A stretch of 64,000 bases of DNA, from contig JAJPHW010000138.1 of assembly GCA_021325035.1 (NCBI GenBank), forward strand, positions 6,910 to 70,909. Direction: 5' to 3'. The notes under the pieces are model-generated. The model searched no databases. It had not been told where the DNA came from and was given only the letters and a program-made list of their open reading frames with translations. A program made the translations under genes and the position numbers. This document shows, piece by piece, positions 12,956 to 63,579 of the stretch (positions within the stretch are counted from its first letter, which is position 1; every line of letters begins with the position of its first letter). This DNA is from Terriglobia bacterium (GTDB taxonomy: Bacteria > Acidobacteriota > Terriglobia > Terriglobales > Acidobacteriaceae).

Positions 12956-12972
12956 GCTCTTGACTCCTGCTC

Positions 12973-13005
12973 AAATTACGCTGGCCCCCCCCCCCGAGAT
13001 GTCAA
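12973..13005 (-). promoter_or_regulatory. Putative sigma70-type promoter with a G11 tract in the spacer (paralogue B)
   Basis: On the - strand: TTGACA (13005..13000), a 21-nt spacer containing G11 (12985..12995), then TAATTT (12978..12973). The ATG is 17 nt downstream. Only ~100 nt separate the lon terminator from this ATG. Confidence 0.4.
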
Positions 13006-13055
13006 GTGAAATCTGTATGACTGTGCAAAGACTTGCGGCCTTTCATTGCGGGGCA

Positions 13056-13094
13056 ACAAAAATGCCGGTTTTCCGAAGTTTGGAAAACCGGCAT
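13056..13094 (-). terminator. Rho-independent terminator downstream of lon
   Basis: On the - strand: ATGCCGGTTTTCC-loop-GGAAAACCGGCAT (13-bp perfect stem) followed by TTTTTG. It lies 20 nt after the stop of the out-of-frame lon C-terminal segment (13115). Confidence 0.8.
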
Positions 13095-13114
13095 TCGTTG
13101 TAGAAATGAACGGG

Positions 13115-13324
13115 TTATCCAACCGGCTGTGCAGTCAAGGCCCGCTCCGGCTTGGCTTTTGCAGGTTTCGGCGATGCTTTCTGCTCTGTCGCAGAGGGCA
13201 GAGCAAATTGCAACACTTCGGGAATCGTCTTCACATAGTGGATTTGCACATTCTCCAATTGTTCTGGAGTGAGGTCTTCCTCCACGTTGGTTTTGTTCTC
13301 CGCCGGCAAAATTACATCCACCAC
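13115..13324 (-). CDS. lon: Lon protease C-terminal segment, out of frame with the main lon ORF
   Basis: The 69-aa frame (V)[41 protein letters not shown]... matches the canonical Lon C-terminus that follows GGVKEKVLA. It is displaced by one nucleotide from 13312..15564. Confidence 0.75.
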
Positions 13325-30945: not shown

Positions 30946-31010
30946 ATCGTAAGTACATTCGTTTTGCCCAGCAAGTTACGCAGGTAATTGTATTTTCGAG
31001 TTTTTATGGG

Positions 31011-32423: not shown

Positions 32424-32474
32424 GCCTGATGGTACGAATGGCCGCAAGAATGCCGCAAGTTACCGTGGTGTGGG

Positions 32475-39693: not shown

Positions 39694-41226
39694 TTAGCTG
39701 ATGGCCGGGTTTGGTTTCTCTGGGTTGATGTCGAGGTCTTTCAACGCTTTTTGCACGACATCCACGCCGATCTGTTTTTCCCGCGCCAACGCACTCAAAG
39801 TGGCCAGCACAATGTGCTTGGCATCCACTTCAAAGAAGTCGCGGAGCGAAGCGCGGTTTTCGCTGCGGCCAAATCCATCCGTGCCGAGCGAAACCAGCTT
39901 TCCCGGCACCCATTGTCCGATGGATTCCGGCAGCACCTTCATGTAGTCGGAGGCGGCGATAAAAACGCCCGGCGCATCCTTTAAGGCTTGCGTGACATAG
40001 GGCACGCGCGGCACGGAACCGGGATGCAGCATGTTCCAGCGCTCGCAGTCATTGCCGTCGCGATAGAGTTCCTTGTAGCTGGTCACGCTCCAAACGTCGG
40101 CCGCGACGCCATATTTTTCTTCCAGAATCTGCTGCGCCTTGAGCACTTCGTACATGATGGTTCCGCTGCCGAAGAGTTGCGCGCGAAGCTTCGAGTCTTT
40201 CTTGCTTGAAGCCTTAAAACGGTAGAGGCCTTTCAGAATCCCCTCGCGCACACCGGGAGTGGATGGCATTTCCGGCATGGGCAATGGCTCGTTAGTGATG
40301 GTCAGGTAATAGAAGATATCTTCCTGATCGACGTACATCCGCCTGATGCCATCCTGAATGATGATGGCAAGTTCATAAGCAAACGAAGGATCGAAGGCCA
40401 ACAAGTTCGGCACGGGCAGTGCCAGAACATGGCTGTGGCCATCCTGATGTTGCAAACCTTCGCCGGCAAGGGTGGTGCGGCCAGCGGTGCCGCCCATCAG
40501 GAACCCGCGAGTGCGCATATCGGCGGCGGCCCAGATGAAGTCGCCGATCCGCTGGAAGCCGAACATCGAGTAATAAATAAAGAAAGGAATCGTGTTGATG
40601 CCGTGATTGGCAGCAGCCGTACCAGCGGCGATGAAAGAACACATCGAACCGGCTTCGGTGATGCCTTCTTCCAAAATCTGGCCGTCTTTTGCCTCTTTGT
40701 AATAAAGAAGCGTGTCCATATCCACGGGCTCGTAAAGCTGGCCGACGCTCGAGTAGATGCCGACCTGACGGAACAAAGCCTCCATGCCAAAGGTCCGGGC
40801 TTCGTCAGGAATAATCGGAACAATCAGTTTGCCGATTTCGGGGTCGCGCAATAATTTCGCGAGCATGCGCACAAAGACCATCGTGGTCGAAACTTCGCGG
40901 CCGTCGGTGCCTTTATAAAATTCTTCAAAGTGCGATTCGGAGATGGGGGCAAGCGGCTTGGCGCGCATTTTCCGCGTCGGCATATAACCGCCGAGTTGCT
41001 TGCGCCGCTGCTGCATGTACTCGATTTCCGGGCTGTCGTCGGCCGGACGGTAAAAGGGCGCATCGTGCAATTGCTCGTCGTGAATGGGAATGCCGAAGCG
41101 CGAGCGGAAAGTCGCCAATTCGGCCTCATTCAGTTTCTTTTGCTGGTGGGTGATGTTCTTGCCTTCGCCAGCTTCGCCGAGGCCATAACCTTTAATGGTT
41201 TTGGCGAGGATGATGGTGGGCGCCCC
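39694..41226 (-). CDS. aceE: Pyruvate dehydrogenase E1 (homodimeric AceE type), part downstream of an in-frame TAA
   Basis: Same reading frame as 41227..42375. Translation continues [31 protein letters not shown]... immediately after the stop. The track ORF (474 aa) begins only at a TTG at 41118. Confidence 0.8.
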   Translation of the reverse strand, partial: [510 protein letters not shown]

Positions 41227-42375
41227 TTAGTGATCCACAGCCGAACGGTAGGCCGCATGAACTTTGATGGGATCGTGCCCACCCAGCCGCAAACGTGCCA
41301 GTTGTTCGTCGGAAAGATGCTCGACCATCTTGAGCAGGCGAGGATCACTTCCGAAAAGATTGTGCCGGAAGTATGCTCCGCTCTCGACGAAGTATTTCTG
41401 ATATTGCCCGTCGCTAATTTCCCCGAGACGTTTGACCAGTAGGCCGTCGCGGTCGTTTTGGATGAGCGTATCCCAATCGCCGCCCCAAACAACCTTAATG
41501 ACATTCCATCCAGCGCCACGGAAAATGGCTTCCAGTTCCTGAATAATCTTGCCATTACCCCGGACCGGGCCATCCAGTCGCTGCAAGTTGCAGTTCACAA
41601 CAAAAATCAGATTGTCGAGCTTTTCCCGGGAAGCAAGAGTAATGGAACCGAGCGCTTCGGGCTCATCCATTTCGCCGTCGCCCATGAAAGCCCATACTTT
41701 GCCGCCGGTCGAAGTCTTGAGGCCGCGGTTTTCCAGATAACGGATGAAACGTGCATGATAGATCGCTTGAATGGGACCGAGTCCCATGGAAACGGTGGGA
41801 AATTCCCAGAAATCCGGCATCAGCCAAGGGTGAGGATACGAAGATAGGCCGCCCTCCGGTTTTAGTTCGCGGCGGAAGTTGTGCAATTTTTCAATGCCAA
41901 GCCGCCCTTCCAAATAGGCCCGGGCATAGATTCCGGGCGCGGCATGACCCTGAAAATAAACGACATCGCGATCGCCAGCTTCGGTTTGCGCACGAAAGAA
42001 ATGATTGAAAGCCACTTCATAGAGCGTGGCCGCGGAAGCGAATGTCGAAATGTGTCCACCAATGCCCTCCGTCTTTTTATTGGAGCGGACCACCATGGCC
42101 AGAGCGTTCCATCGAACCAGGCTTTTAATGCGCCGCTCCATATCCTGACTGCCGGGGAACGGAGGCTGCTGGCGCACGGAAATCGTGTTTTGGTAAGGAG
42201 TTGTCGCGGTGAAGGGCAGGTTTACGCCGGCAGAAAGCCGCGCATGCAGCGACAACTGCTGAATCAGGCGCCCCGCGCGTTCAGGGCCACCTTTGGCCAG
42301 CACATAATCCAAAGAATCCAGCCATTCACGCGTTTCAATAACTTCCAGTCCATTTGTCTTCTGCGCCTCAGCCAC
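41227..42375 (-). CDS. aceE: Pyruvate dehydrogenase E1 (AceE type), N-terminal 382 aa ending at a premature in-frame TAA
   Basis: ThDP-binding region GDGEMDEPE...[14 protein letters not shown] is present. It ends ...AYRSAVDH* where full-length AceE proteins continue. Confidence 0.85.
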   Translation of the reverse strand: [382 protein letters not shown]

Positions 42376-42577: not shown

Positions 42578-43171
42578 ATGGCGACAAAAACCGCATCAGG
42601 CAACCACGCAAAAACCGCACAACCTCGCTTACATCAACGTGCCAATGTGATTCAAGAGTTCGGAACGGTGACCCATGCTCTACCGCTGGACTTGGAAGAA
42701 CCTGTTCGTCTGGAGATGACGGAACAACTGAACTTCCTGCTCGCGGACACGATGGCGATTCGCGATCTCTATAAGAAGTCGCACTGGCAGGTGTCAGGGC
42801 CCACTTTTTATCAACTCCATCTTCTTTTCGACAAACATTTCAACGAACAATCTGAGATTGTGGATACCATTGCCGAGCGCATTCAGCTTTTGGGGGGATT
42901 GCCGCTTGCCATGGCCCACGACGTAGCGGAAACAACTCGTGTTGAGCGTCCCCCGAAGGGCCGCGAAGAAGTTCCGGTTCAGATTTCCCGTTTGCTCGAC
43001 GCTCATCAGATTATCATCGGGGCATGCCGACAGTTGGCCAAGCGCGCATCCACGCTGGGCGACGATGGTACGAATGATTTGGCGGTCAGTGATGTTCTGC
43101 GCACCAATGAACTACAAGCGTGGTTTTTGAGTGAACATCTGGTGGATATGCCGCTGGTAAAAGCCGAATAA
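42578..43171 (+). CDS. dps: Dps family DNA-protection/ferritin-like protein
   Basis: 197-aa ORF with AAGGAGA Shine-Dalgarno and the motif LYKKSHWQVSGPTFYQLHLLFDKHFNEQSEIVDTIAERIQLLGG. Confidence 0.9.
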   Translation: MATKTASGNHAKTAQPRLHQRANVIQEFGTVTHALPLDLEEPVRLEMTEQLNFLLADTMAIRDLYKKSHWQVSGPTFYQLHLLFDKHFNEQSEIVDTIAERIQLLGGLPLAMAHDVAETTRVERPPKGREEVPVQISRLLDAHQIIIGACRQLAKRASTLGDDGTNDLAVSDVLRTNELQAWFLSEHLVDMPLVKAE

Positions 43172-43180
43172 CGCTTTGAT

Positions 43181-44086
43181 CTAGCCTTTAAGAACGGCCA
43201 TTACGATCAACACAACCGGCAGGTAGAGAACGGAAGCGTGCAGTAAACGGCTGGCCATTTTACGCGAGGCGGATTCTGACAGCTTGATGGAGTGGTAGAG
43301 CAGGAATCCGCCGGCCAGCACCATGCTCAAGGTATAAGCGGGGCCGCCGCGATCTACGAATGGCAGTAATGTGGTGACGATTAAAGCTACAGTAAAAGCC
43401 ACAATTTCTGCCCGCGTGAACTTGGAATCCAAATCGAAACTCGGCAGCATTTTGTATCCCGCGCGCTCATAGTCTTCGCGGTACATCAGCGCAATTGCCA
43501 GAAAATGCGGGAACTGCCACAAAAACAAGATGGCGAAGAGGTACCAGGCGTGCAGACTAATGCTGGCCGTTGCGCCAGCCCATCCGATGAGCGTGGGCAT
43601 CGCGCCGGGAAAGGCTCCAAGCATGGTGCAAAGCGGAGTCTTGCGCTTCAGCGGCGTGTAAATCAGAAGATAGGACAACAAAGTCGAAACCGCTAACGCG
43701 GAAGCCAGCCGGTTGACCGTCAGCGCCAGGTAAATTCCCCCGGCCAAGCTCAAAGAAACGCCAAAGATAAAAGCTTCCAACGGGCTCACACGCCCCGAAG
43801 GCAGGGGCCGATTGGCGGTGCGGCGCATCTGGCCGTCCCACACGCGCTCCATCCATTGATTTAAAGTCGCGGTGCCGCTGGCCACTAATAACGTGCCGAT
43901 CAGCGTATGCACCAATCCCGCCCATTGGAAACTACCTTTGCCGCCCAAATAGTAGCCGGCCGAGGTGGTCATCAAAATAAGCAGGTTCACTTCCGGCTTG
44001 GTCAGGGTGTAATAATCCCGCAATTTGGTGACAAGCAGAGACGGAAGCGTCACGTTCGGAGGAGCTACTGTTTGAGTAGATGCCAT
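43181..44086 (-). CDS. ctaB: Protohaem IX farnesyltransferase (haem O synthase)
   Basis: 301-aa polytopic UbiA-family ORF with NQWMERVWDGQMRRTANRPLPSG and FLWQFPHFLAIALMYREDY. Confidence 0.9.
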   Translation of the reverse strand: MASTQTVAPPNVTLPSLLVTKLRDYYTLTKPEVNLLILMTTSAGYYLGGKGSFQWAGLVHTLIGTLLVASGTATLNQWMERVWDGQMRRTANRPLPSGRVSPLEAFIFGVSLSLAGGIYLALTVNRLASALAVSTLLSYLLIYTPLKRKTPLCTMLGAFPGAMPTLIGWAGATASISLHAWYLFAILFLWQFPHFLAIALMYREDYERAGYKMLPSFDLDSKFTRAEIVAFTVALIVTTLLPFVDRGGPAYTLSMVLAGGFLLYHSIKLSESASRKMASRLLHASVLYLPVVLIVMAVLKG

Positions 44087-44096
44087 TATTCGGTCG

Positions 44097-44402
44097 TTAC
44101 CAGTCCCGCTCAGAGGCAGCAGCGCTTTCAGGATTTGCGAATTGGTTCCGCTTGCGATATGCCATTACGGTCACGCCCACCGATAAAAATGCCGGCGGAA
44201 TGACCAGCACCAAAATGCCGCTACGCAACGATTGAATGACACGCTGTCCAGCCGATGCCGCTTGCGTGTAACAGAGTGCGCAACTCTGGGCGTGAGCTGC
44301 CGGCAAAACGAGAGCAAGGAAACACACTCCCAACATCCAATGCCAAGCCCGAATCTGTGTGAAGCCTTTCACTCGCCCCATGGTCACAATCGCCACTCTC
44401 AA
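44097..44402 (-). CDS. Small membrane protein with a periplasmic CxxC motif (oxidase-operon associated)
   Basis: About 100 aa. It has a signal peptide ending AHA-QSCALCY and one TM helix (GILVLVIPPAFLSVGVTVMAY). Its start (TTG 44402 or ATG 44381) overlaps or abuts the subunit IV stop. Confidence 0.5.
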   Translation of the reverse strand: MRVAIVTMGRVKGFTQIRAWHWMLGVCFLALVLPAAHAQSCALCYTQAASAGQRVIQSLRSGILVLVIPPAFLSVGVTVMAYRKRNQFANPESAAASERDW

Positions 44403-44713
44403 TGATAACTCGAATATGGCACGCCGCCTACAATCCGGAAAGCATCGGGCCAGCTATATTGCAAAGTTGCCAGCACGAACAAAACAAAAATGGAGACAAA
44501 AATCAGCAATGCGCGCTTCTCGCTCCACAGGTGCATAAAGAAGAGAACGCCAAGTGCAGCTTCCAGCATCGCTAACAAAAACATGCGGACAAACATTTCC
44601 GAATAGCTGGCGGAGTGGTAGGCCACAACAAACTGCAATCCGGCAATGGCCAGAATACAAACGTAAACCACCAAGTATCTGCCAAGTCCGCTAGCTTGAT
44701 CATTTGTGCTCAT
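44399..44713 (-). CDS. Cytochrome c oxidase subunit IV (prokaryotic COX4 family)
   Basis: 104-aa ORF with three TM helices and the typical LVVYVCILAIAGLQFVVAY...FMHL pattern. Confidence 0.75.
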   Translation of the reverse strand: MSTNDQASGLGRYLVVYVCILAIAGLQFVVAYHSASYSEMFVRMFLLAMLEAALGVLFFMHLWSEKRALLIFVSIFVLFVLATLQYSWPDAFRIVGGVPYSSYH

Positions 44714-44737: not shown

Positions 44738-45358
44738 TTAGTGACTCAAGTTCAACAGATAAATGAACGGAACCACGAACATCCAAACCAAATCCACAAA
44801 GTGCCAATAAAGGCCCAGCACTTCAATATCATCGGCGTTGTAACGCCCTCCTTGATAGCGGAATCCCACCACTATCAAAGCAATTACGCCGCAAGTGACG
44901 TGAAACAAGTGAAGTCCGGTAATGCTGTAAAACGCCGATCCGAATAAACCCGTTCCCCATGGATTTTTGAAAATGGTCATGCCTTCTTCGATCAGTTGAG
45001 ACCATTCCCGCAAGTGGAGCAGTCCGAACAAGATGCCGAGGGCCGCGGTCATCAAGATCCAGCGAAAGGCTTTTCCTTTGTCTCCCGCTCGCGCCGCGCG
45101 CATGCCGATCAGCATGGTCAAGCTGCTCGTGACCAGAATGAAGGTCATGATGGCGACGTTGGTAATGCTGTGGAAAGGCGTTGGCCAATTGGGCGTGGAG
45201 TTGCGCAGAAATCCATAAGCAACCAGACACGCCGCGAACGTCATAGCGTCAGAAATAATGAACAGCCACATCGCAAGCTTTTTCGAAGGAATGGAAAACG
45301 GCGACGGTTCCATGGCTCCGGATTGGTGCGCTCCGAGGGCGATATTGGCTTGGCTCAC
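44738..45358 (-). CDS. coxC: Cytochrome c oxidase subunit III family protein (second of two)
   Basis: GTG start at 45358 lies 4 nt after AGGAGG. Motifs seen: LAMWLFIISDAMTFAA, GLHLFHVTCGV, YWHFVDLVWMFV. Confidence 0.8.
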   Translation of the reverse strand: MSQANIALGAHQSGAMEPSPFSIPSKKLAMWLFIISDAMTFAACLVAYGFLRNSTPNWPTPFHSITNVAIMTFILVTSSLTMLIGMRAARAGDKGKAFRWILMTAALGILFGLLHLREWSQLIEEGMTIFKNPWGTGLFGSAFYSITGLHLFHVTCGVIALIVVGFRYQGGRYNADDIEVLGLYWHFVDLVWMFVVPFIYLLNLSH

Positions 45359-45381: not shown

Positions 45382-46044
45382 CTAAATCTTGCTCCAAAGC
45401 ACAAACAGCAGGTACAACCACAAGACGTCCATAAAATGCCAGTAATGCGATGCCGCATCCAGCGTGCTCTTCCGAAGAATGCCTTTATGGAAACGGCGGA
45501 TTACATATCCCAATCCTAATAGTCCGCCCAGCACATGCAGCGCATGGATAGTGGTGAACACATAGAAGAACGAGCTATTCGGACTGGTCGCGATGTAAAG
45601 CCCCTGTGCGCGCAACTGCATCCACGCGATGTATTGCCCGGCGACAAACAGCAGACCCAAGCCCATCGTGGCATGCAGCCAGAATGCAGGATTGGAAATT
45701 TTCGTTCCACCCATGAATAAAGCAATGCGCTTACGCGCAGTTTGTAAAGTGAAACTACTGATCAACAACAGAACCGTATTGAAATACAAAATCGGAGGCA
45801 GCGTTAAGTGCTTCCAATCCGGCGCTCCACCTTTGCGCACCACCAGTGCGCTGGTGAAAGCAAAAAATGACATGGTGATAGCGGCAATCCCCACCCAAAC
45901 CGCAGTACTAGCAGGAGGCGGAGAATAATTGTCCAACTTCTTGAGGTCACCCCCAGTTGTAACGTTATTTCTGCCGCCGTCGCCCGAAGTCGTGCGAGGC
46001 GTGCGGCCTAAATCAATCGGTGGTTCGTGAACAGTCGTTGCCAT
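45382..46044 (-). CDS. coxC: Cytochrome c oxidase subunit III family protein (first of two)
   Basis: 220-aa ORF with FYVFTTIHALHVLGGL and HYWHFMDVLWLYLL. Confidence 0.8.
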   Translation of the reverse strand: MATTVHEPPIDLGRTPRTTSGDGGRNNVTTGGDLKKLDNYSPPPASTAVWVGIAAITMSFFAFTSALVVRKGGAPDWKHLTLPPILYFNTVLLLISSFTLQTARKRIALFMGGTKISNPAFWLHATMGLGLLFVAGQYIAWMQLRAQGLYIATSPNSSFFYVFTTIHALHVLGGLLGLGYVIRRFHKGILRKSTLDAASHYWHFMDVLWLYLLFVLWSKI

Positions 46045-46061: not shown

Positions 46062-47870
46062 TTATTTCTCATCCCCGGGTGTTGCCACTTGCTCCGGCGA
46101 AGTTTGCATCACATAGTCGCCCATCGAGCCTTGTACCCCGTATTGATAAGGATCGTGATAGACGACGATGTGCTTGCCGTTAAAGTTGTTCCAGGACGGC
46201 GGTGAATCGGTTGACCACTCGAGCGATGTGGCCTCCCATGGATTTTCCGTCGCTTTCGCACCCCAGAAGCGGCTATGGATCAGGTTGTAAAGGAAGATAA
46301 GCTGTGCGAATCCAGTAAACAGCGCAGCCACTGTGATGAACTTGTGTACTGGAATAAGCGGTTGCAGGTAATCATCAACAAACGCCTGATAGCGGCGGAT
46401 ATTGGCGGCAAGCCCCAAATAATGAAATGGCATGAACAGGGCGTAGGCGCCGACAAACGACATCCAGAAGTGAACTCTGCCCAAGGTTTCGTTCATCATG
46501 CGTCCGGTCATCTTGGGGAACCAGAAATAGGTTCCGGCGAAGATGCCGAACATCGCCGCCACGCCCATCACCATGTGGAAGTGACCGACGACGAAATAAG
46601 TCGCGTGTAAAAGAATGTCGAGCGAAGGTTGCGCGAGGAAGAATCCGCTGACGCCCCCGCTGATAAACATGGAGATGAAACCAAGCGCGAACAGCGATGC
46701 CGAGTTAATTCGAAGGCGTGAGCCGTAGAGACTCCCCAGCCATATCAATACGATGATCGTGGCGGGAATCGTAATGACCAGCGTCGGGAAAGAAAAAACC
46801 AGAGCCGAGAACGGGTTCATGCCGCTCACAAACATGTGATGGCCATAAACCACATAGCTCAGGAAGCCAATGCCCATCATGCAATAGATAAGCACGCGAT
46901 GGCTGAGCATGGGTTTGCGCATATTCGTGACCAGAATGTGCGAAACCACGCCCATCGCAGGGACGATCGCGATATACACCTCTGGGTGCCCGAAGAACCA
47001 GAAAAGATGCTGCCACAGAAGCGTTGAGCCGCCGGAGTGAGGCAAGAGCTTGTCGTTAATCACGAGGCCCGAAGGAATAAAGAAGCTCGTTCCAGCAACG
47101 TGATCGAGAATCAGCAGAATGCAGGCCGGGAGCAGAACTGCAAATGCGGTGAGACCGATACAGGAAGTAATGAACCAAGCCCACGCGGAAAGCGGCAGGC
47201 GCATAAGCGACATGCCTTTGGTGCGCATGTCGAGAGTGGTGGAAATGAAGTTGAGAGCGCCAAGTAGCTGGCCGATGCAGAACAATCCGATCGAGGCTGC
47301 CCACAGAACCGCTCCGGTACCTTGACCGGGGCCAGACGCCGATCCGACTGCACTGAGCGGGGCATACTGCGTCCAACCGCCGAGCGTGGGGCCATCCCCG
47401 ACGATAAACGAGGCGACCAAGACGAGAAAGGCCATGAAGGTCACCCAAAACGACATCATGTTAAAACGGGGGAAGGGCATATCCTCAGCGCCGACCTGGA
47501 TGGGCAAAAAGAAATTGCCGAAGGCCGCAAATGGCGCAGTGGTCAAAACGAAAAAGACCATAATGGTGCCGTGCATGGTCATTAACTGCAAATAAAATTC
47601 AGGCGTGATTACGCCGCCCGGCGCTCCAGTGCTGGAGAGTAATTGCGTGCCGGGAATGGCCGCGTTCGTCCAGCCCAAATGGATGCGCATGATCCAGGAA
47701 AGCATCATGCCGAAAAACGCAGCCACGAGGGCCAGCGCATAGTATTGCTTGCCGATTACTTTATGGTCCGTACTGAAGATGTGCTTACGGATAAAAGTTG
47801 TCGGTGGACCATGATGCGTCGCGTGAGATACATCGTGCATGCTGCTCACCTCGAGAAAGTTTTTGCTCAC
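46062..47870 (-). CDS. coxA: Cytochrome c oxidase subunit I (haem-copper oxidase, A-type)
   Basis: 602-aa ORF with FFGHPEVYI, GMISHI-like VVSHILV and HHMFVSGM, and about 12 TM helices. Confidence 0.92.
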   Translation of the reverse strand: MSKNFLEVSSMHDVSHATHHGPPTTFIRKHIFSTDHKVIGKQYYALALVAAFFGMMLSWIMRIHLGWTNAAIPGTQLLSSTGAPGGVITPEFYLQLMTMHGTIMVFFVLTTAPFAAFGNFFLPIQVGAEDMPFPRFNMMSFWVTFMAFLVLVASFIVGDGPTLGGWTQYAPLSAVGSASGPGQGTGAVLWAASIGLFCIGQLLGALNFISTTLDMRTKGMSLMRLPLSAWAWFITSCIGLTAFAVLLPACILLILDHVAGTSFFIPSGLVINDKLLPHSGGSTLLWQHLFWFFGHPEVYIAIVPAMGVVSHILVTNMRKPMLSHRVLIYCMMGIGFLSYVVYGHHMFVSGMNPFSALVFSFPTLVITIPATIIVLIWLGSLYGSRLRINSASLFALGFISMFISGGVSGFFLAQPSLDILLHATYFVVGHFHMVMGVAAMFGIFAGTYFWFPKMTGRMMNETLGRVHFWMSFVGAYALFMPFHYLGLAANIRRYQAFVDDYLQPLIPVHKFITVAALFTGFAQLIFLYNLIHSRFWGAKATENPWEATSLEWSTDSPPSWNNFNGKHIVVYHDPYQYGVQGSMGDYVMQTSPEQVATPGDEK

Positions 47871-47895: not shown

Positions 47896-48705
47896 TTACT
47901 GCAATGCCGCCTGTTGTTTCAGCCAATTGTCGTAATCGGACTGCGACATCACTTCGAGATACGCTTTCATGTTGTAGTGACCAAGTCCGCACAACTGCGT
48001 GCAGACGATTTCATACTTGCCGACCTTGGTCGCCGTGAAATGCAGCGACAGGTCGAGACCGGGGACGAAATCCTGCTGCACGCGCAATTCAGGAACAAAG
48101 AAGGAGTGCCCCAAGTCCTTTGAGTGCATCAGCAGATGGATTTCCTTGTTCACGGGGATTGCCATTTCCGCAGCGACGATGTCGTCTTTGGAGGCAGCGT
48201 CGTTCGTCGTGTCTAAGCCGAAATAGTTCTGGTTGCCTTCGTTGATCAGTTCCGGATGCAAGGGACCAAACTTCCCGTCTGGGCCGGGATAGCGGAAATA
48301 GAATGCAAACTGACCGGCCTGCACTTGTATCGGCAACGCGTCCGCGGCAGGCGGCTGGAAATACACACTGGCCCAGGCTTTGGTTCCGAAAACACCAAGC
48401 GCGAGGACCTCCGTACCCACCAACAGGAACCCAGCAATCACCATTGCCTTTGCGCCACCGGGAAAGTAGCCGAGCTTGTCTTTCGTGGTGTGGTTGCCAA
48501 ACGACCAGATGAACCATGCGAGCAGGATTTGCGAGGCCAGAAATGCCACGCCCGCTTCGATCATGGTGTCTTTCATCTGGTGGTCAATCAGATAACCATG
48601 CGTGGAAATATCCTGCGGCGCTGCGGTAAACCAACTATTGGCAATAATGGGATATGCCGAAGCAATGGCAATGACGAAAATCGTGACCGCAAAAAACTTG
48701 GCCAT
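47896..48705 (-). CDS. coxB: Cytochrome c oxidase subunit II (CuA domain only, no fused cytochrome c)
   Basis: 269-aa ORF with two N-terminal TM helices. CuA ligands: LHF...VCTQLCGLGHYNM. Confidence 0.9.
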   Translation of the reverse strand: MAKFFAVTIFVIAIASAYPIIANSWFTAAPQDISTHGYLIDHQMKDTMIEAGVAFLASQILLAWFIWSFGNHTTKDKLGYFPGGAKAMVIAGFLLVGTEVLALGVFGTKAWASVYFQPPAADALPIQVQAGQFAFYFRYPGPDGKFGPLHPELINEGNQNYFGLDTTNDAASKDDIVAAEMAIPVNKEIHLLMHSKDLGHSFFVPELRVQQDFVPGLDLSLHFTATKVGKYEIVCTQLCGLGHYNMKAYLEVMSQSDYDNWLKQQAALQ

Positions 48706-48844: not shown

Positions 48845-49582
48845 TTATTTCGCCTTGAACGTAAAGTTCGCGCTCGCAGCCTTGCCCGCAGCGACGGTTA
48901 CCTGCTGCGTTTGTGTGCCATAAGTTTCCTGCCATGCAGTCAGGGTGTAGCTTCCGGGGGCTACATTCGACAACGTGAAGGCGCCACTGTCATCGCTCAC
49001 CCCATAAGGCCCTTTCACAACTGCGATATAGCCGTGCATCCAAGGGTGAATATTGCACTTCACAGGAACGGCGATTTCCTCGTTCGCCCAAGTCACGTCA
49101 AACGGCGCCGATCCGGGCGGTTGTGATTTATTCCACTCCGCATTCTTCGTTGGCTGCGGGTGAATGTTGTGCGAAGTCGAGTCGGAATTGACGACCTTCA
49201 TGTGTTGACCGGCATCGAGGGCCACAACGTGCGGAATATATTGACAGCCTTTTTGCGTCAAGGTAACGGCATCGGAAGAGGCCGCTTCGTTACCGCTCAA
49301 CCCCTGGCTAATGTAAACCACTACGTTGGCCAAACCGCCATTTGCGCCAGCGACAACCGACTCCATCATTGCCGGTTTGTCTTTATGGATCGCCGCGCAG
49401 CTGGGTTCCTTGGACATGTCAATACCCTTTTGGTGCGGAGCCACGCCATCCAGTTTCACGGTTCCAGTGATGCTGGAACCTGACGGCGGAGCCGCACTCA
49501 CGCTACTCCCCAAGATCAGCGCGCCCATCATCATAAACACTACGGCGAATAGTACAACAACTGATTTTTTATGACTTTTCAT
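48845..49582 (-). CDS. Secreted cupredoxin (type-1 copper-like) protein with CarboxypepD_reg-like C-terminal sandwich
   Basis: 245-aa ORF with a signal peptide. Candidate T1Cu ligands are SHNIH...(~37 aa)...KCNIHPWM (C-x2-H-x2-M). The C-terminus is SGAFTLSNVAPGSYTLTAWQE. Confidence 0.7.
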   Translation of the reverse strand: MKSHKKSVVVLFAVVFMMMGALILGSSVSAAPPSGSSITGTVKLDGVAPHQKGIDMSKEPSCAAIHKDKPAMMESVVAGANGGLANVVVYISQGLSGNEAASSDAVTLTQKGCQYIPHVVALDAGQHMKVVNSDSTSHNIHPQPTKNAEWNKSQPPGSAPFDVTWANEEIAVPVKCNIHPWMHGYIAVVKGPYGVSDDSGAFTLSNVAPGSYTLTAWQETYGTQTQQVTVAAGKAASANFTFKAK

Positions 49583-49611: not shown

Positions 49612-50514
49612 TTACGGTTGACCGCCCGACGATGCAGCCGGAGCTGCCGGCGCAGGAGCGTTCGGATCAATCGGTTTCAAACCAAGCTGCTTGGCAATGG
49701 CTCTTTCTTTCATGTTGTAAGCATTCTTGGGTTGGAGCGTACGCAGATAGAAAACGAGATCCCAAGCCTCATCTGGTTTCACATTGTCAATGAAGGATGG
49801 CATCGGTGTCCCGTCCAAACCAGACATGAAGATCTTGTAGATGTCGCGATCCGTGCTTCCGCATTTAGGCCGCGAGCCTTCGGTGAAATTGTACGGCTTG
49901 ATGGGACGATTTTGATCGTCCTGAAGGGTGTCCGACGATGGCCCATTTGCCCGACCTTCGACACCGTGACACTTCCAGCACTCCAGCTTTTGGAACAAAG
50001 CCTGCCCCGCTTTGACGCGGTCAGCTGTAACTTCTGGTTCAGCCGGAATCGGGAAAACTTCTCCAGCCTTTTCGGTGGTCCACTTCGATGAGAAGTGTTT
50101 GACGTAGGCCACTAAATCAACTTTGTCCTGATTGGTGAGCTGGTTCCAAATTGGCATGACCGAACGGTCAAAACCTCGCCCGACGGAGTTGTAAAGGTCT
50201 TCGTCGGTCGGCAGGGTACCACTCGGCGTCGAGCGGCACTTGAACTGACCCAGCGTGAAGTTGCGGGGTTGAGGATCAAGCCATTGGGCATTTTCACCTT
50301 GGCCGTCGCCCTCGACGCCGTGACAGCCTACGCAATAACGGCGGTAATTCGCCTGAGCATCGGCGGCGTGTCCGGTGTATTTGCCGACGTGGGCTTCCAT
50401 GTTAAGCCGTTGATCTTCCTGGTACTTTGTCATTTGCGCCCAGGAGACCGCGGACATCAAGAGCAGCGAAGCTGCCCCCAGCAGTAACGACGATTTCATG
50501 AATTTGGTTTCCAT
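49612..50514 (-). CDS. Dihaem c-type cytochrome
   Basis: 300-aa ORF with a signal/anchor peptide. It has two CxxCH motifs (CVGCH, CWKCH) with candidate distal Met (SVMPIW, TPMPSF). Its start is 11 nt after the upstream stop. Confidence 0.85.
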   Translation of the reverse strand: METKFMKSSLLLGAASLLLMSAVSWAQMTKYQEDQRLNMEAHVGKYTGHAADAQANYRRYCVGCHGVEGDGQGENAQWLDPQPRNFTLGQFKCRSTPSGTLPTDEDLYNSVGRGFDRSVMPIWNQLTNQDKVDLVAYVKHFSSKWTTEKAGEVFPIPAEPEVTADRVKAGQALFQKLECWKCHGVEGRANGPSSDTLQDDQNRPIKPYNFTEGSRPKCGSTDRDIYKIFMSGLDGTPMPSFIDNVKPDEAWDLVFYLRTLQPKNAYNMKERAIAKQLGLKPIDPNAPAPAAPAASSGGQP

Positions 50515-50525
50515 CGTTTTCTCTC

Positions 50526-51884
50526 CTAGAATGCAAAGTCAAATCCCAGCAACAACTCGCTGCTGGTCAGGTCTGTGCCATCTGGCGCCGCCTTGGACTG
50601 TCGTAGCCAGTTGTACTCGTTATGCCAGGCAAAACCAGCCCGGCTGGTCATGATCGGCATGTAGCGGTAGCCGATCGTGAAGGTCTGAATATTGCCCGCG
50701 TCGGAGGGTGTCGCCGCCAACGCTTGCTGCGAAACGTTGATGCCCTCATATCTCCCGATGAAAATAAGCTGCGGACTGAACACGTAATGGGGCTCAACCA
50801 GGAAGCCATTCCATGTCGCATTCCGCGCTCCAGCGGGAAGCGCTCCCGAAGGTACGTTACCCGGAACCGGGTTGTAGGGCGAAGTTGCAGTTGCGAAATA
50901 CTTGTCATCGGAACCGTGCTGCGTAACCACCTGGAAGTCAAGTTTTCCTAGGTATATTTGGCCGGTAAATCCATAGCGGCTGAAACTCTTGTTCCCAAAA
51001 CCCGTGCCGGGAATCGGAACCCCTCCGGAGCTTAGGAATTGGGTCGGAGCCTCGCCGACCATGGCATAGAAGCCGAGCCTTTGCACGCCCAACTTTCCAG
51101 TATCAAAAGCTTGGCTCGCTGCAAAGAATCCGCTGTAGGAATTGCCGGCAGGCAAGCCGACCGTCCCGTCGTTCGAACTTAACAAGGCTGCCGAAACGCG
51201 GGTGCGGTCGTTATAGGAGTGACCCATGTATTCCACGCCCAGTTGGTTGTCGCCGATCTGGCCATAGCCGTTGGTGTCTCCCAGTGGCGAGAAGTGATAG
51301 AGCTGATAAATTCCACCGTTCCCAGTCAGAGTCAGAATGCGCTTTTCGGAGAGCAGGTTGTCCAATTCAAACTTACCCAGCTTCACGTTGAGCCACGTCG
51401 AGCCGAACAGGTTGTCGAGCCGGGCCATCACCGTTTCAAAGTGGAAGGAAGCAGTGTTGTCGGAAGAAGGGAGCACGTAAAACGAAATATTTTTATCCAG
51501 CGTGCCGCCGGTATGGAAGTCGAGGCCACTTAGGTCAAAACCGTGAGAAGTAATTTGAACTTCGCCGGTGTTCGGCCCTGCCGCCGTATCTACGCCAACC
51601 TTGTCGGTGCTTACACGATGCCAAATTGGAGTAATACGAAAGGTCACCGGCCAGTAAGAAGGGTTTTGCCAGATTGGGGCATCCCTGTCATTCATAAGCT
51701 GGTAGCCATTGTCTTTAAACTTTTGACCAAATGGATTCAGTTGGGGCCACGCTTCGTGGCAGGCAGAACAACGCAGTCCGTACTTGCGAGCAAAAGCCGG
51801 TAAGGCATGGGCATCACTAAAACCGGCAAACACAAAGCAAGCAAGGAAAAGCAGGCCCGCGACCCACTTACGGGGGAGACTCAT
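50526..51884 (-). CDS. Putative fused monohaem cytochrome c / outer-membrane beta-barrel protein (Cyc2-like architecture)
   Basis: ATG at 51884 after AGGAGGA, with a signal peptide ending DAHA. The single CSACH lies in LPAFARKYGLRCSACHEAWPQLNPFG. It is followed by ~420 aa with about 16 amphipathic strand-like segments and the terminus ...LLLGFDFAF. Confidence 0.65.
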   Translation of the reverse strand: MSLPRKWVAGLLFLACFVFAGFSDAHALPAFARKYGLRCSACHEAWPQLNPFGQKFKDNGYQLMNDRDAPIWQNPSYWPVTFRITPIWHRVSTDKVGVDTAAGPNTGEVQITSHGFDLSGLDFHTGGTLDKNISFYVLPSSDNTASFHFETVMARLDNLFGSTWLNVKLGKFELDNLLSEKRILTLTGNGGIYQLYHFSPLGDTNGYGQIGDNQLGVEYMGHSYNDRTRVSAALLSSNDGTVGLPAGNSYSGFFAASQAFDTGKLGVQRLGFYAMVGEAPTQFLSSGGVPIPGTGFGNKSFSRYGFTGQIYLGKLDFQVVTQHGSDDKYFATATSPYNPVPGNVPSGALPAGARNATWNGFLVEPHYVFSPQLIFIGRYEGINVSQQALAATPSDAGNIQTFTIGYRYMPIMTSRAGFAWHNEYNWLRQSKAAPDGTDLTSSELLLGFDFAF

Positions 51885-51974
51885 TCGATCCTCCTGAAAC
51901 GGAAGCATTTTAGAAGCAAGCACTGAGAACACGCGCAGTGACCGGGAGTTATTTTCTAGTGCACGTGGACGCAC

Positions 51975-52004
51975 TAATTATCATGAGAAAAAATTTGGTG
52001 TCAA
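51975..52004 (-). promoter_or_regulatory. Putative strong sigma70 promoter of the cytochrome-porin/oxidase cluster
   Basis: On the - strand: TTGACA, 18-nt spacer, TAATTA with an extended -10 TG (caTGaTAATTA). It lies ~90 nt upstream of the ATG at 51884 and is followed by an AGTGC-N8-GCACT inverted repeat. Confidence 0.5.
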
Positions 52005-52068: not shown

Positions 52069-52770
52069 CTAACAAGAGACCGCCAGAATGGTTGCAAGCC
52101 GAGTTGCAACGTCCCTTTCGCTATGCCGGTCACGGCCCAAAACTTCCGGACGGAGGAAGCCGAATACAAACCCGAAGACCCCTATTGCGCAAGTCATGTT
52201 CTTCATACCGCCTTCCTGAAGACGCTGCCCCTCAGGAAAATGCTTCAGACGGCCAGTCATCGCGCGCATTCTGCCGGACTCGACAAGTTCGCCAAGTACT
52301 TTGCCTAGGGAAGGATCCACCATGGCTCGCGACACTACAATGCGAAGAAAATCGCGGTCCTCCCACATGCGGTCAATTTCCCATTGAACCAGCCGCACGA
52401 ATTCTTGAGCAAAATTTTGGGCATGTGGTACCCGGTTTAAGTCATTCATTTCCAGCCGCATGCGGTCGCGAACCAAAGCCAGCAGCAATCCGGCTTTACC
52501 GCCGAAGTAGCGATGAATCAATCCCTCGGCGCAACCCGCAACCGTGGCAATCTCTCGGGTAGTTGCCGCCTCGTAGCCTTTGGAAGAAAAAAGTTTGATG
52601 CCCGCGAGCAGCAAAGCTTTTTCTTTGGCAGCGCGATCACGAATTCGTGGTGCCGAAGACCGATTTTTTGCCACACGCAGCGCGCTATTGATGGCTTCTT
52701 TGGTAGAGTTATGTTCCTGAAAATGCATGGATAGAAGATCGCCCCTAACGAATTGAACGGACATTAGCAC
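52069..52770 (-). CDS. TetR/AcrR family transcriptional regulator
   Basis: HTH region KALLLAGIKLFSSKGYEAATTREIATVAGCAEGLIHRYF. Start uncertain (GTG 52770, ATG 52764 or ATG 52728). Confidence 0.85.
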   Translation of the reverse strand: MLMSVQFVRGDLLSMHFQEHNSTKEAINSALRVAKNRSSAPRIRDRAAKEKALLLAGIKLFSSKGYEAATTREIATVAGCAEGLIHRYFGGKAGLLLALVRDRMRLEMNDLNRVPHAQNFAQEFVRLVQWEIDRMWEDRDFLRIVVSRAMVDPSLGKVLGELVESGRMRAMTGRLKHFPEGQRLQEGGMKNMTCAIGVFGFVFGFLRPEVLGRDRHSERDVATRLATILAVSC

Positions 52771-52905: not shown

Positions 52906-53772
52906 TTGCTCCAGCCCCGATCATTCCAACGAATCTTCGCGACACTTTTGTTCCTTGCCATGTGCGCCGGGATTGTTTCCGCAAGAGAGAAGAAATCGAA
53001 AGAAGACGCAGGCCTTGGTTTTACCGCCGAAGTCACTGCTTCCACGGCCGAGTTAACGGAGGCCGTGCAGGATGTTATTAACAACGGGATCATCCAAGGC
53101 AGCAAGGAATACGACAAAGATCCTTATGTCACCGGAGCAAATTCAGCCGAAAGCTCACCGCTGTTTCCAAAGTGGACGGGCCCGGGGGATGTTTACTTTA
53201 AAGTACGCACCGATGTGATCGCCCCACGGAATTTTGTGGATAGCGGCGATCAAGGAACCTTGGCGGTGCGCTACATCGTCCAGCCGAAAGATGCGACCAG
53301 AAGCATTTTGCGCATAGATGCTGTATATGTCGAAAACGAGCGCCACACAGTCCATCCCTCCAACGGAACGGTTGAAACCAGCGAATTTCACGATATCCAG
53401 GACCGGGTTGATGCCATTCAACTCAAGAAAAAACAGGCAATTGAGGGCGAAAAGAACCGGCAACAAGAAATTGCTCGCCGGGCCCTTGAGCAACGCCAGC
53501 AGATGGATGCTGACAATCTGGCTGCATCCACCAGTACACAGCAGGGACTGGAAGAAAAAGTTCATAGTTTGCGGCAACAATTGGAGCGCGTCGTAAAAGG
53601 CCCCGGGGTGCAGCTTAAGACTGCGCCTTACCGCACGGCAGCAAATTTAAAAATACTTCCGCCGGGAACTCAAGTTGTGATCGTCGTTGTGACTCCATAT
53701 TGGCTTGGTATCGAGACTGAAGATGGTCTACATGGCTGGATTCATCACGACCAGTTGGAGATCCTGCCCTGA
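52906..53772 (+). CDS. Secreted hypothetical protein with C-terminal bacterial SH3 domain
   Basis: 288-aa ORF with a TTG start and a signal peptide (IFATLLFLAMCAGIVSA). It has a coiled-coil middle and a C-terminal SH3_3-like LKTAPYRTAANLKILPPGTQVVIVVVTPYWLGIETEDGLHGWIHHDQLE. Confidence 0.65.
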   Translation: MLQPRSFQRIFATLLFLAMCAGIVSAREKKSKEDAGLGFTAEVTASTAELTEAVQDVINNGIIQGSKEYDKDPYVTGANSAESSPLFPKWTGPGDVYFKVRTDVIAPRNFVDSGDQGTLAVRYIVQPKDATRSILRIDAVYVENERHTVHPSNGTVETSEFHDIQDRVDAIQLKKKQAIEGEKNRQQEIARRALEQRQQMDADNLAASTSTQQGLEEKVHSLRQQLERVVKGPGVQLKTAPYRTAANLKILPPGTQVVIVVVTPYWLGIETEDGLHGWIHHDQLEILP

Positions 53773-53795: not shown

Positions 53796-55019
53796 TTGTT
53801 GGCTGCTTTGCTTAGCTTGGAAGCATTTGCCCAGAATGCGAACGTGCGAACTTTCTCGCAACCTAAAGCTGCAATTGAGAAGGCTCTTCACAGCCTGCAA
53901 CCAACTTCGGGCCGCCTCCCCACTCTCGAAGGGTTCGTCCAAGAGGAAGGACAGAATCTCAAACAATTTCAGAGGGGTTTCTACGAATGTTCTGTCGCCG
54001 TCGCAGCCAATTCTTCAGGCGGATCAACTGTTCACGTGCAAGCCAAAATTACGGCTTGGTACCAAGACCCGACGGCGGCAAAGTCGGGCTATCGCGCCCT
54101 GCCCTCCAACGGAAGGCTGGAAGCCGACTTGCTCGATCGTCTCGACGATGCGTTGCAGAATGGCGCCGCCCCGGTTTCATCCGCGAAACAGCCAAGCAAT
54201 AGTTCGATTGCTTCCAAAACCAGCGATTCCGATTCATCCGCGCCCAAATTGATGGCCCCCATGCCTCAGTTGCCCACGGTGAATAATCCCCTGACCGGTT
54301 CCAGTATTGGCGCGCCGTCGAGCGACAGGAATGGGGTTTCACAAACTCAGCGGCAGCCACATCAAGGCCCGGATGGGCAACTCGCGGCATTGCTCAATGA
54401 AGAAAAGAACCTGGAAGAAATTTTGCGAAACCAGAATCATCCTAATAATTTGGCTGCGGTAAAGAAGAATGGCGCTCCCGTGCTGGCCAGCCCCGCGGAA
54501 GGCGCAAAAATTTTATTTACCGCCGCGCCAGAAGACGAATTTGAAGTACTCGATGAAAACACAAGCTGGGTGCATGTGCGGATTTCTGGCCTGTCGCGCG
54601 GCTGGATTTTACGCGCAAATCTTGAAATGCCGGGAGATGCCGTGCAGGGCAAATCTTCTGAGCCATCCCAGCAATTCCGCGTGACCAATGACCAGATCGT
54701 CTCATTTCCCGGCGACTGGGAACCGCTGCGTGGAAAGACGGTCAAGATCGTTTCCGTGCAAGCGACTAGCGATTCGATTATCGGATGGCGCGCCAAACTC
54801 GATTACGCCAAAACAGTATTTCGAAACGACTACGAAGCTTTGGCCGCATCAGGTGGTGAGTCGGGTGAAGTGCTCATCTTTGATGCGCAGGATGGCGGCA
54901 TGATCGCTGCAACTTTGGAAAACGTTAAGAAATGGCGTGACGGCGCGCTCACCGATGACGCCTTCTGGAAGATTTGTTATTTTGACCCGCCGGAGACGTT
55001 TGGAGCCGCAAGCCAGTAG
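53796..55019 (+). CDS. Hypothetical protein with SH3-like domain (paralogous N-terminal module to 52906..53772)
   Basis: 407-aa ORF; start uncertain because the signal peptide looks truncated. SH3-like segment: AAVKKNGAPVLASPAEGAKILFTAAPEDEFEVLDENTSWVHVRISGLSRGWI. Its N-terminal LPSNGRLEADLLDRL parallels HPSNGTVETSEFHDIQDRV in the neighbour. Confidence 0.6.
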   Translation: MLAALLSLEAFAQNANVRTFSQPKAAIEKALHSLQPTSGRLPTLEGFVQEEGQNLKQFQRGFYECSVAVAANSSGGSTVHVQAKITAWYQDPTAAKSGYRALPSNGRLEADLLDRLDDALQNGAAPVSSAKQPSNSSIASKTSDSDSSAPKLMAPMPQLPTVNNPLTGSSIGAPSSDRNGVSQTQRQPHQGPDGQLAALLNEEKNLEEILRNQNHPNNLAAVKKNGAPVLASPAEGAKILFTAAPEDEFEVLDENTSWVHVRISGLSRGWILRANLEMPGDAVQGKSSEPSQQFRVTNDQIVSFPGDWEPLRGKTVKIVSVQATSDSIIGWRAKLDYAKTVFRNDYEALAASGGESGEVLIFDAQDGGMIAATLENVKKWRDGALTDDAFWKICYFDPPETFGAASQ

Positions 55020-55169: not shown

Positions 55170-55244
55170 TTGGAGGCGCGGGTCGGAATCGAACCGACGC
55201 ATAAAGGTTTTGCAGACCTCTCCCTTACCACTTGGGTACCGCGC
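55170..55244 (-). tRNA. tRNA-Cys (anticodon GCA)
   Basis: The reverse complement GGCGCGG...CUGCAAA...GGTTCGATTCC...CCGCGCCTCCA folds as a cloverleaf: 7-bp acceptor stem, T-loop TTCGATT, encoded CCA. Confidence 0.93.
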
Positions 55245-55325
55245 CTTGCTTTCTAAATTAACGGGCTTGGGCGAAAAAGTCCACCGCAGGAGCAGGCCGC
55301 TAAATAGCTCAATTGTGAGGGAAAA

Positions 55326-55400
55326 TGGAGCGGGAGACGAGGGTCGAACTCGCGACATCGACCTTGGCAAGGTCGCGCTCTACCACTGAGCTACTCCCGC
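55326..55400 (-). tRNA. tRNA-Gly (anticodon GCC)
   Basis: The reverse complement is GCGGGAGTAGCTCAGTGGTAGAGCGCGACCTTGCCAAGGTCGATGTCGCGAGTTCGACCCTCGTCTCCCGCTCCA. It has a canonical D-loop, the anticodon loop TTGCCAA and an encoded CCA. Confidence 0.95.
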
Positions 55401-63343: not shown

Positions 63344-63579
63344 TCGCTTCCTCCTTTGAAAATAGATGCGGGGAGTATGACATTGGACGCTGAGAACGGT
63401 GCACCGCTGAATCAAGTAAAGTTATATTGGATTCCATCGCGGAAGCGCATCTGGTCCGGTGATCGGCGCGGTCTTCAAAACCGTCGAGCGGCATCTCTGA
63501 TGTCACTGATGGGTTCGACTCCCATTCGCTTCCGCCAAGCTTCAGGTTGCACTACTCTATACACGGAGGGATTCCCCAC

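Follow-up and report, generated by a model that had tools for sequence, protein, structure and literature searches.

A Cyc2-type cytochrome-porin at the head of a conserved terminal-oxidase operon suggests that common soil heterotrophs may pass electrons from dissolved iron to oxygen

To our knowledge, no marker gene for microbial Fe(II) oxidation other than that of the outer-membrane cytochrome-porin Cyc2 can be used widely. Here we analyze a Cyc2-like gene in a stretch of DNA of 64,000 nucleotides (nt), termed the window, from a Terriglobia bacterium (Terriglobales, Acidobacteriaceae; assembly GCA_021325035.1, contig JAJPHW010000138.1, positions 6,910-70,909), for which a first-pass annotation made from the letters of the DNA had proposed a monohaem cytochrome c fused to a predicted outer-membrane β-barrel. 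The gene stands first in an operon and, in our assessment, probably encodes a Cyc2-family fused cytochrome-porin that would be the entry point of an electron-uptake chain running from the outer membrane to O2, with Fe2+ as the probable donor.

The definition of Cyc2 given by Keffer et al. (2021) comprises a signal peptide, a single CXXCH motif, the upstream motif AXPXFAR[Q/K][T/Y], a downstream PXL motif, a length of at least 365 amino acids (aa) and a fused porin of 16 strands, with OprO/OprP as modelling templates. The same study calls AXPXFAR[Q/K][T/Y] unique to Cyc2, describes the porin part as poorly conserved, with identities of 17-30% between Cyc2 clusters, and validates the Cyc2 of Mariprofundus ferrooxydans PV-1 (Cluster 1; hereafter Cyc2(PV-1)) as an Fe2+ oxidase. 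In Acidithiobacillus, Acidiferrobacter and Acidihalobacter the gene order of the rus operon is cyc2-cyc1-cup-coxBACD-rus/ctaB. Leptospirillum has the Cluster 3 Cyc2 Cyt572, alongside Cyt579; in a published similarity network Cyt572 neighbours homologues from Acidobacteria, and the same network study reports rus-like operons only in Acidiferrobacter and Acidihalobacter. The MtrCAB, MtoAB and PioAB systems consist of separate decahaem cytochromes inside 26-strand barrels (Keffer et al., 2021). Marker-gene surveys have recorded cyc2 in soil metagenome-assembled genomes (MAGs) of several phyla, and the paper on Ca. Acidoferrum concerns Fe(III)-reduction genes only; in the literature searched, no paper linked Cyc2 with Terriglobales or described the operon reported below.

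The gene under study and its parts are laid out as follows, in window coordinates:

50526..51884, minus strand: cyc2-like gene (fused monohaem cytochrome c and outer-membrane porin, as predicted), 452 aa plus stop
51977..52004, minus strand: sigma-70-type promoter-like site TTGACA-16 nt-GATAAT (11/12), about 90 nt upstream of the start codon
51890..51895, minus strand: Shine-Dalgarno sequence AGGAGG, 5 nt before the ATG at 51884, read from the sequence
51804..51884, minus strand: signal peptide, residues 1-27, with basic n-region, hydrophobic core and AHA cleavage motif, by inspection
51660..51803, minus strand: cytochrome module, residues 28-75, ALPAFARKY-GLR-CSACH-EAW-PQLNPFG, three short helices
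51756-51770, minus strand: CSACH haem motif, residues 39-43, within the cytochrome module
50529..51659, minus strand: β-barrel porin domain, residues 76-452, 16-17 strands, C-terminus ...GFDFAF

The reading frame is real and lies where the first-pass annotation had put it; the strand, which that annotation left unstated, is minus, the plus-strand translation of the interval being full of stops. The 452-aa gene model is supported by the promoter-like site, by the AGGAGG, by the identical product of independent gene calls on four metagenome contigs and by the unlikelihood of the alternative: a longer GTG start at 51974 overlaps the transcribed edge of the promoter, lacks a Shine-Dalgarno sequence and was rejected. 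The promoter-like site is the best of three such sites in 10 kb, where 7.4 are expected. A terminator-like hairpin at 50566-50546 falls within the last part of the coding sequence and was disregarded. The product opens with the predicted signal peptide MSLPRKWVAGLLFLACFVFAGFSDAHA, continues past the cleavage site, with L as the next residue, as LPAFARKYGLRCSACHEAWPQLNPFGQKFKDNGY, and ends in LLLGFDFAF, both termini being exactly those quoted earlier; the structure prediction described below has a helix at residues 5-19 followed by a low-confidence or disordered segment at 19-29. Inspection likewise bears out the signal peptide that had been claimed, and the protein has precisely one CxxCH among its three cysteines in total, again as first described. 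The distance of 13 residues from cleavage site to CxxCH holds if cleavage falls after SDA and becomes 11 if it falls after AHA, and the "about 420 aa" said to follow the motif are in fact 409 residues.

The cytochrome module, where the single haem would be attached, has the published signature of Cyc2. Its upstream motif, ALPAFARKY, is conserved in all distant relatives inspected, and the P-x-F-A-R motif to which the first-pass annotation had pointed proves to be the one by which Keffer et al. (2021) define Cyc2. FAR and the first cysteine are separated by five residues, as in Cyc2(PV-1) (FAR-QTGAA-C), and the downstream PXL follows in the form CSACH-EAW-PQL, where three residues intervene, compared with four in PV-1 (FQTF-PAL) and in one relative, P0246. 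The length of 452 aa lies above the published threshold of 365. The Cyc2(PV-1) sequence used in these comparisons, P0284 from M. ferrooxydans, was retrieved via the mass-spectrometry peptides in Table S1 of Keffer et al. (2021), 9 of 12 peptides matching exactly. The motif regions read AIPAFARQTGAACLSCHFQTFPALNAFG in Cyc2(PV-1) and ALPAFARKYGLRCSACHEAWPQLNPFG in our protein, and the aligned N-termini are EAIPAFARQTGAACLSCHFQTFPALNAFGRAFK in PV-1 and HALPAFARKYGLRCSACHEAW-PQLNPFGQKFK here. Both proteins thus share a signal peptide, a single CXXCH, the pattern A-[IL]-P-A-F-A-R-x-[TY]-G-x-x-C-x-x-C-H...P-x-L-N-x-F-G, a length of about 440 aa and a fused porin; they differ in that the PXL stands one residue nearer the CXXCH in the Terriglobales protein.

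An AlphaFold2 (AF2) model built from a 49-sequence alignment (predicted local distance difference test, pLDDT, 84.9; predicted template-modelling score, pTM, 0.82) has three short helices round the haem motif, then a linker and, beyond residue 80, 16 strand elements by DSSP; one of these (103-130) is long enough for a hairpin, giving a count of 16-17. The structure prediction that had been proposed as a check yields a barrel with an N-terminal haem module. In a Foldseek comparison against the PDB, OprP (2O4V) comes first (2.7e-12) and OprO (4RJW) third (2e-11), ahead of 16-strand porins; OprP and OprO are the very templates published for the Cyc2 barrel (Keffer et al., 2021). These two and the general 16-strand porins PorB, Omp32 and OmpF are the best structural matches (E 1e-12 to 1e-9, template-modelling (TM) score about 0.5), yet their identity to the protein is only 10-14% and they have neither an N-terminal haem module nor a redox function. 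A control model of Cyc2(PV-1) (pLDDT 79.5) matches the same porins with equal TM scores, about 0.53 to OprO/OprP, and the structural neighbours OprO, OprP, PorB and Omp32 are common to the two models. Their predicted secondary structures are co-linear: the strings agree at 359 of 470 positions, with a score of 246 against 96 +/- 21 for segment-shuffled strings, and the long helix-bearing loop after strand 6 is found in both. As judged from sequence and model, the protein has all the published sequence and architectural features of Cyc2.

Profile comparison by hhalign of our family with that of Cyc2(PV-1) gives a probability of 98.1% and an E-value of 7e-14 over 353 columns at full length, and 2.2e-16 for the haem module alone, while pairwise scores between the two proteins are only 22-30 bits; a PDB sequence search with the protein returned nothing at E <= 10, and by sequence neither family has a relative of solved structure. 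Sequence homology to a validated Cyc2 is demonstrated for the haem module only. The motifs, the predicted OprP/OprO-like barrel and this homology together support the Cyc2-like reading with which the analysis began.

A word-indexed search yields at least 5,658 relatives at E <= 1e-3, and an exhaustive search gives 2,622 clusters at 50% identity. The best 120 matches are 69-100% identical and all termed "hypothetical"; where named, they come from Terriglobales MAGs, which confirms the earlier description of the genome as Acidobacteriota-like, and identity among the Terriglobales members is about 70%. Cluster look-ups for distant relatives returned no functional name, all being "hypothetical" or unnamed, and no isolate genome with a close homologue was found in the search, whose matches were long-read MAG contigs. 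Across 49 full-length relatives (down to 28% identity) P29, F31, C39, C42, H43 and P47 are invariant and A27, A30, A32, R33 and L49 nearly so; hence the motif is no product of chance. The layout A-x-P-x-F-A-R-x-[Y/T], 3 aa, CxxCH, 3(4) aa, PxLNxFG and a C-terminal aromatic residue is kept in full-length relatives to 28-30% identity. The family is very large and entirely unannotated, and its conservation pattern points to strong selection.

The genes following the cyc2-like gene, together with the regulator that precedes it, are listed here:

49612..50514, minus strand: periplasmic dihaem cytochrome c (CVGCH, CWKCH) with signal peptide, two Pfam Cytochrom_C matches, 11 nt after the cyc2-like stop
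48845..49582, minus strand: type-1 (blue) copper cupredoxin, 245 aa, with CarboxypepD_reg-like C-terminal part, after a 29-nt gap from the dihaem gene
47896..48705, minus strand: CoxB, subunit II, with complete CuA site H-x34-C-x-Q-x-C-x3-H-x2-M and no fused cytochrome c
46062..47840 (open reading frame (ORF) extends to 47870), minus strand: CoxA, subunit I, A-family haem-copper oxidase
45382..46044, minus strand: COX3-family subunit, first copy
44738..45358 (ORF extends to 45421), minus strand: COX3-family subunit, second copy
44399..44713, minus strand: CoxD, subunit IV
43181..44086, minus strand: CtaB haem O synthase (TIGR01473, 266 bits, above cutoff)
52069..52764, minus strand: TetR-family regulator, just upstream of the cyc2-like gene

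All operon genes are on the minus strand, in the order cyc2-like, dihaem cytochrome c, cupredoxin, coxB-A-C-C-D and ctaB. This is the order of the rus operon, in which an outer-membrane cytochrome-porin, a dihaem cytochrome c and a cupredoxin likewise precede coxB, coxA, coxC and coxD and then ctaB, and the logic, from outer membrane to periplasmic carriers to aa3 oxidase, would also be the same. The differences are that the dihaem cytochrome is not a c4-type Cyc1, that the cupredoxin has a CarboxypepD_reg-like part, that two COX3 genes are present and that the front module (the cyc2-like gene and its carriers) is joined to cbb3 oxidases in other phyla. The resemblance to the Cyt572-Cyt579 pair, where Cyt572 is likened by description, lies in the combination of an outer-membrane monohaem cytochrome-porin with a periplasmic c-type carrier, but the Leptospirillum genes, unlike those of the present operon, are not clustered. 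MtrCAB, MtoAB and PioAB are likewise outer-membrane electron conduits for iron redox chemistry, whereas here one polypeptide would combine one haem with about 16 strands. In relation to Cyc2(PV-1), which was compared as a protein and not as a locus, our gene is distinguished by lying in an operon with its own carriers and oxidase.

The dihaem cytochrome c is closest in the PDB to 6H5L_B (E 1.9e-55), no c4/CYC41 entry being among its PDB matches at E <= 0.01. The entry 6H5L is the structure of a Kuenenia HAO-type enzyme, whose chain B is deposited as "conserved hypothetical cytochrome protein" and which we take to be the dihaem redox partner of that enzyme. Against the cytochrome 579 NCBIfam equivalog NF033864 the dihaem protein scores 50.3 bits, far below the cutoff of 280, a weak, domain-level similarity only that sets it apart from Cyt579. 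The putative copper ligands of the cupredoxin are H138, C176, H179 and M182, of which both histidines are invariant and C176 and M182 at least 90% conserved in a 25-sequence alignment, with a 74-sequence alignment in agreement. The ligand set H...C-x2-H-x2-M corresponds to an amicyanin-like type-1 copper loop, and the profile matches include a blue copper protein (5FC9, E 2.2e-4) and amicyanins (about 0.01). The copper domain of this protein also looks as if it were nested in a CarboxypepD_reg sandwich: one end of the sandwich corresponds to an N-terminal "SITGTVKLDG" strand, the other to the C-terminal residues 195-242. A disulfide may join two further cysteines, the invariant C62 and C113. 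On these profiles the dihaem cytochrome and the cupredoxin are plausible electron carriers; since CoxB has a full CuA site, the oxidase would be fed by periplasmic carriers and not by quinol. As read from the genes, the context strongly suggests that electrons are transferred to a terminal oxidase.

When species-representative genomes were scanned with an alignment of distant relatives, at least 575 stretches encoding a relative were obtained, and the context counts that follow refer to the best 80 loci. These come from MAGs of Myxococcota, Gemmatimonadota, Acidobacteriota (Terriglobia, Vicinamibacteria, Thermoanaerobaculia and Ca. Acidiferrales/Acidoferrum), Hyphomicrobiales, Steroidobacterales and others. 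Among the matches listed, which were soil and sediment MAGs, there was none from Acidithiobacillus, Gallionella or Leptospirillum. The dihaem gene is directly downstream in 79 of the 80 loci, the exception being truncated, and 69 loci have a cupredoxin no more than 6 kb away. Of the 68 loci with adequate flanks, 54 show linkage to a haem-copper oxidase, which is of the A-family (aa3-type) in 41, of cbb3-type in 12 and of both kinds in one; close relatives on megabase-scale contigs have an operon identical to that of the window. Among the cbb3-type loci, L015 has CcoN and a CcoO/P fusion at 12166-15319 (plus strand). Since the same front module is linked to two different families of O2 reductase, electrons would flow inward, to O2, and this is the strongest argument for that direction.

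Some variants of the context may be recorded separately. A cbb3-type oxidase takes the place of the aa3-type one after the Cyc2-like and dihaem pair in L015, L012, L016-L019, L021, L024, L025, L030, L034 and L078, which belong to MAGs of Acidobacteriota, Gammaproteobacteria and Steroidobacterales. In one of the 80 loci (L005, a Myxococcales MAG; 11999-13504, plus strand) a three-domain multicopper oxidase comes right after the Cyc2-like and dihaem genes, possibly as an alternative metal-oxidising partner. In an 82%-identical relative (L087; 12190-13047, plus strand) a STAS-domain (anti-sigma-antagonist-like) gene stands between cupredoxin and coxB; the window has a 139-nt gap at this point, with two weak promoter-like sites shortly after the start of coxB (48671-48644 and 48587-48560), and the insertion hints at separate regulation of the oxidase genes. 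At its ctaB end the operon meets a convergent ferritin/Dps-like gene (42578-43171, plus strand), an adjacency kept only in the closest relative (L067) and probably coincidental. Both this gene and the TetR gene, which adjoins the module in close relatives as well, were rejected as parts of the system, the adjacency being found in one of the 80 loci each and kept only in close relatives; the TetR protein is possibly a local regulator.

The chain we favour, with electron uptake from Fe2+ through a Cyc2-type protein, would work as follows. The Sec-exported protein would place a monohaem c module of about 45 residues on a 16-17-strand barrel in the outer membrane; a dissolved extracellular reductant, most probably Fe2+, would enter the pore and reduce the pore-embedded haem. 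Fe2+ is stable in acidic, micro-oxic soils. From the haem the electron would pass to the periplasmic dihaem cytochrome and/or the cupredoxin, then to the CuA of CoxB in the aa3-type oxidase, and finally to O2, with supplementary respiratory energy (lithoheterotrophy) and/or removal of Fe2+ as the outcome.

A number of observations weigh against this interpretation. The host lineages, in contrast to PV-1, are known as aerobic heterotrophs. When barrel-only profiles are compared, the similarity to the Cyc2(PV-1) family is undetectable (E 0.33), and common descent of the whole protein is inferred from the predicted architecture. Pfam and NCBIfam searches with the protein give no significant match (a BBP2 match at 23.8 bits, against a cut-off of 26.2 and seen in 1 of 49 family members, was disregarded); this does not refute Cyc2 membership, because authentic Cyc2(PV-1) has no Pfam match either. 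Unlike the rus operon, the window locus has no rusticyanin or second cupredoxin gene between or flanking coxD and ctaB, the genes beside that region being the ferritin-like gene and pyruvate dehydrogenase genes. In 14 of the 68 loci with full flanks the trio of Cyc2-like protein, dihaem cytochrome and cupredoxin has no oxidase nearby. More generally, Cyc2 homologues are widespread and occur both in Mn(II) oxidisers and in organisms for which iron oxidation is not known; the function of the divergent Cyc2 clusters is regarded as uncertain by the authors who defined them (Keffer et al., 2021).

Three other explanations were weighed. One keeps the architecture and the inward flow of electrons but has another reductant as donor, for instance Mn(II), Cu(I), humic or quinone compounds in reduced form, or the surface of a mineral or a partner cell. 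A part in the Mn(II) lithotrophy of Ca. Manganitrophaceae has been attributed to Cyc2 homologues, such homologues also occur in the electrode-oxidising Tenderia, and blue copper carriers suit high-potential donors generally; the multicopper oxidase of the Myxococcales locus would also fit, but that linkage is confined to a single locus. Moreover, every Cyc2 biochemically tested so far (A. ferrooxidans Cyc2, Cyt572, PV-1 Cyc2 and a Nitrospirota Cyc2) oxidises Fe2+, and the narrow OprP-like pore has been argued to admit only small dissolved ions (Keffer et al., 2021), so that we regard a different donor as rather unlikely. The undetectable barrel similarity lends itself to a second explanation, namely a convergent fusion of a haem module to an unrelated porin with a non-respiratory role, either as a redox-gated or sensing channel or in supplying Cu and haem to the adjacent oxidase, which requires Cu and haem A; the dihaem cytochrome and cupredoxin could then be the ordinary donors of the oxidase from complex III. 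Convergence has to contend with the co-linear strand layout of the two models, including the helix-bearing loop, with their identical PDB neighbours and with the poor barrel conservation documented for true Cyc2, while the retention of the trio both in the 14 loci without a nearby oxidase and with either aa3 or cbb3 is a poor fit to a biogenesis factor for one enzyme. We consider it improbable.

The third explanation reverses the chain, with respiratory electrons being dumped on extracellular Fe(III) or humics under O2 limitation. A haem-porin architecture is reversible in principle, and Fe(III) reduction in acid soils has been proposed for Acidobacteriia, among them Ca. Acidoferrum, in which the module occurs at locus L070. 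However, the described Fe(III)-reduction conduits use multihaem cytochromes and 26-strand porins (Keffer et al., 2021), the module is linked in the genomes to two families of O2 reductase, and the high potentials of type-1 copper carriers are ill-suited to the reduction of Fe(III) oxides; outward transfer accordingly appears to us very improbable. Uptake of electrons, probably from Fe2+, by a Cyc2-family protein thus remains the reading that we prefer.

Elsewhere in the window, the pyruvate dehydrogenase E1 gene (39694-42375, minus strand) has an in-frame TAA at 41227-41229, where a metagenome contig that is 99.96% identical (L001; 8 mismatches in 21,359 nt) has AAA (Lys) and a single 893-aa E1 product; the TAA marks a nonsense mutation or pseudogene in this assembly, or else a sequence error. 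A selenocysteine tRNA at 63441-63533 (plus strand; Rfam tRNA-Sec, 66.9 bits) indicates that the organism probably makes selenoproteins, and two ordinary tRNAs lie at 55174-55245 and 55329-55400 (minus strand). Upstream of the operon is a divergent pair of genes for secreted proteins (52906-53772 and 53796-55019, plus strand), one without a Pfam match and the other with SH3_3, and the same pair is found upstream in the close relatives L085-L087. The intervals 29140-32447 and 32475-34520 (minus strand) contain genes for two large proteins with a C-terminal TonB_C domain, one of them with a response-regulator receiver domain at its N-terminus, and next to these a 681-aa ORF without a Pfam match, an unusual TonB-like architecture.

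Yet another Cyc2 homologue would as such hardly surprise a specialist; the point of interest is the conserved wiring to terminal oxidases. The Cyc2-type protein is not a stray homologue: it heads a tightly conserved operon with the logic and gene order of rus, in Terriglobales and in other dominant soil phyla. The novelty lies in a rus-like operon that spans phyla and brings carriers of its own: a dihaem cytochrome c of the 6H5L_B type and a cupredoxin with a fused CarboxypepD_reg-like part. We tentatively extend this to the proposal, possible but short of probable, that the front module, firmly coupled to aa3 or cbb3 oxidases across hundreds of genomes of Acidobacteriota, Gemmatimonadota, Myxococcota and proteobacteria, is a functional rus-like uptake chain and that its cytochrome-porins form a distinct Cyc2 clade with dedicated carriers. 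The meaning of Cyc2 outside the classical iron oxidisers is an acknowledged problem, and the conserved operon makes the use of Fe(II) by soil heterotrophs directly testable. Should the proposal be false, the motif-based definition of Cyc2 over-predicts iron oxidisers. If it is true, many abundant soil "heterotrophs" would be facultative lithoheterotrophs oxidising Fe(II) or another donor, and would amount to a large unrecognised guild in soil iron cycling; estimates of iron oxidisers in acidic or micro-oxic soils and peat would then change, as would the reading of metagenomic "cyc2" counts.

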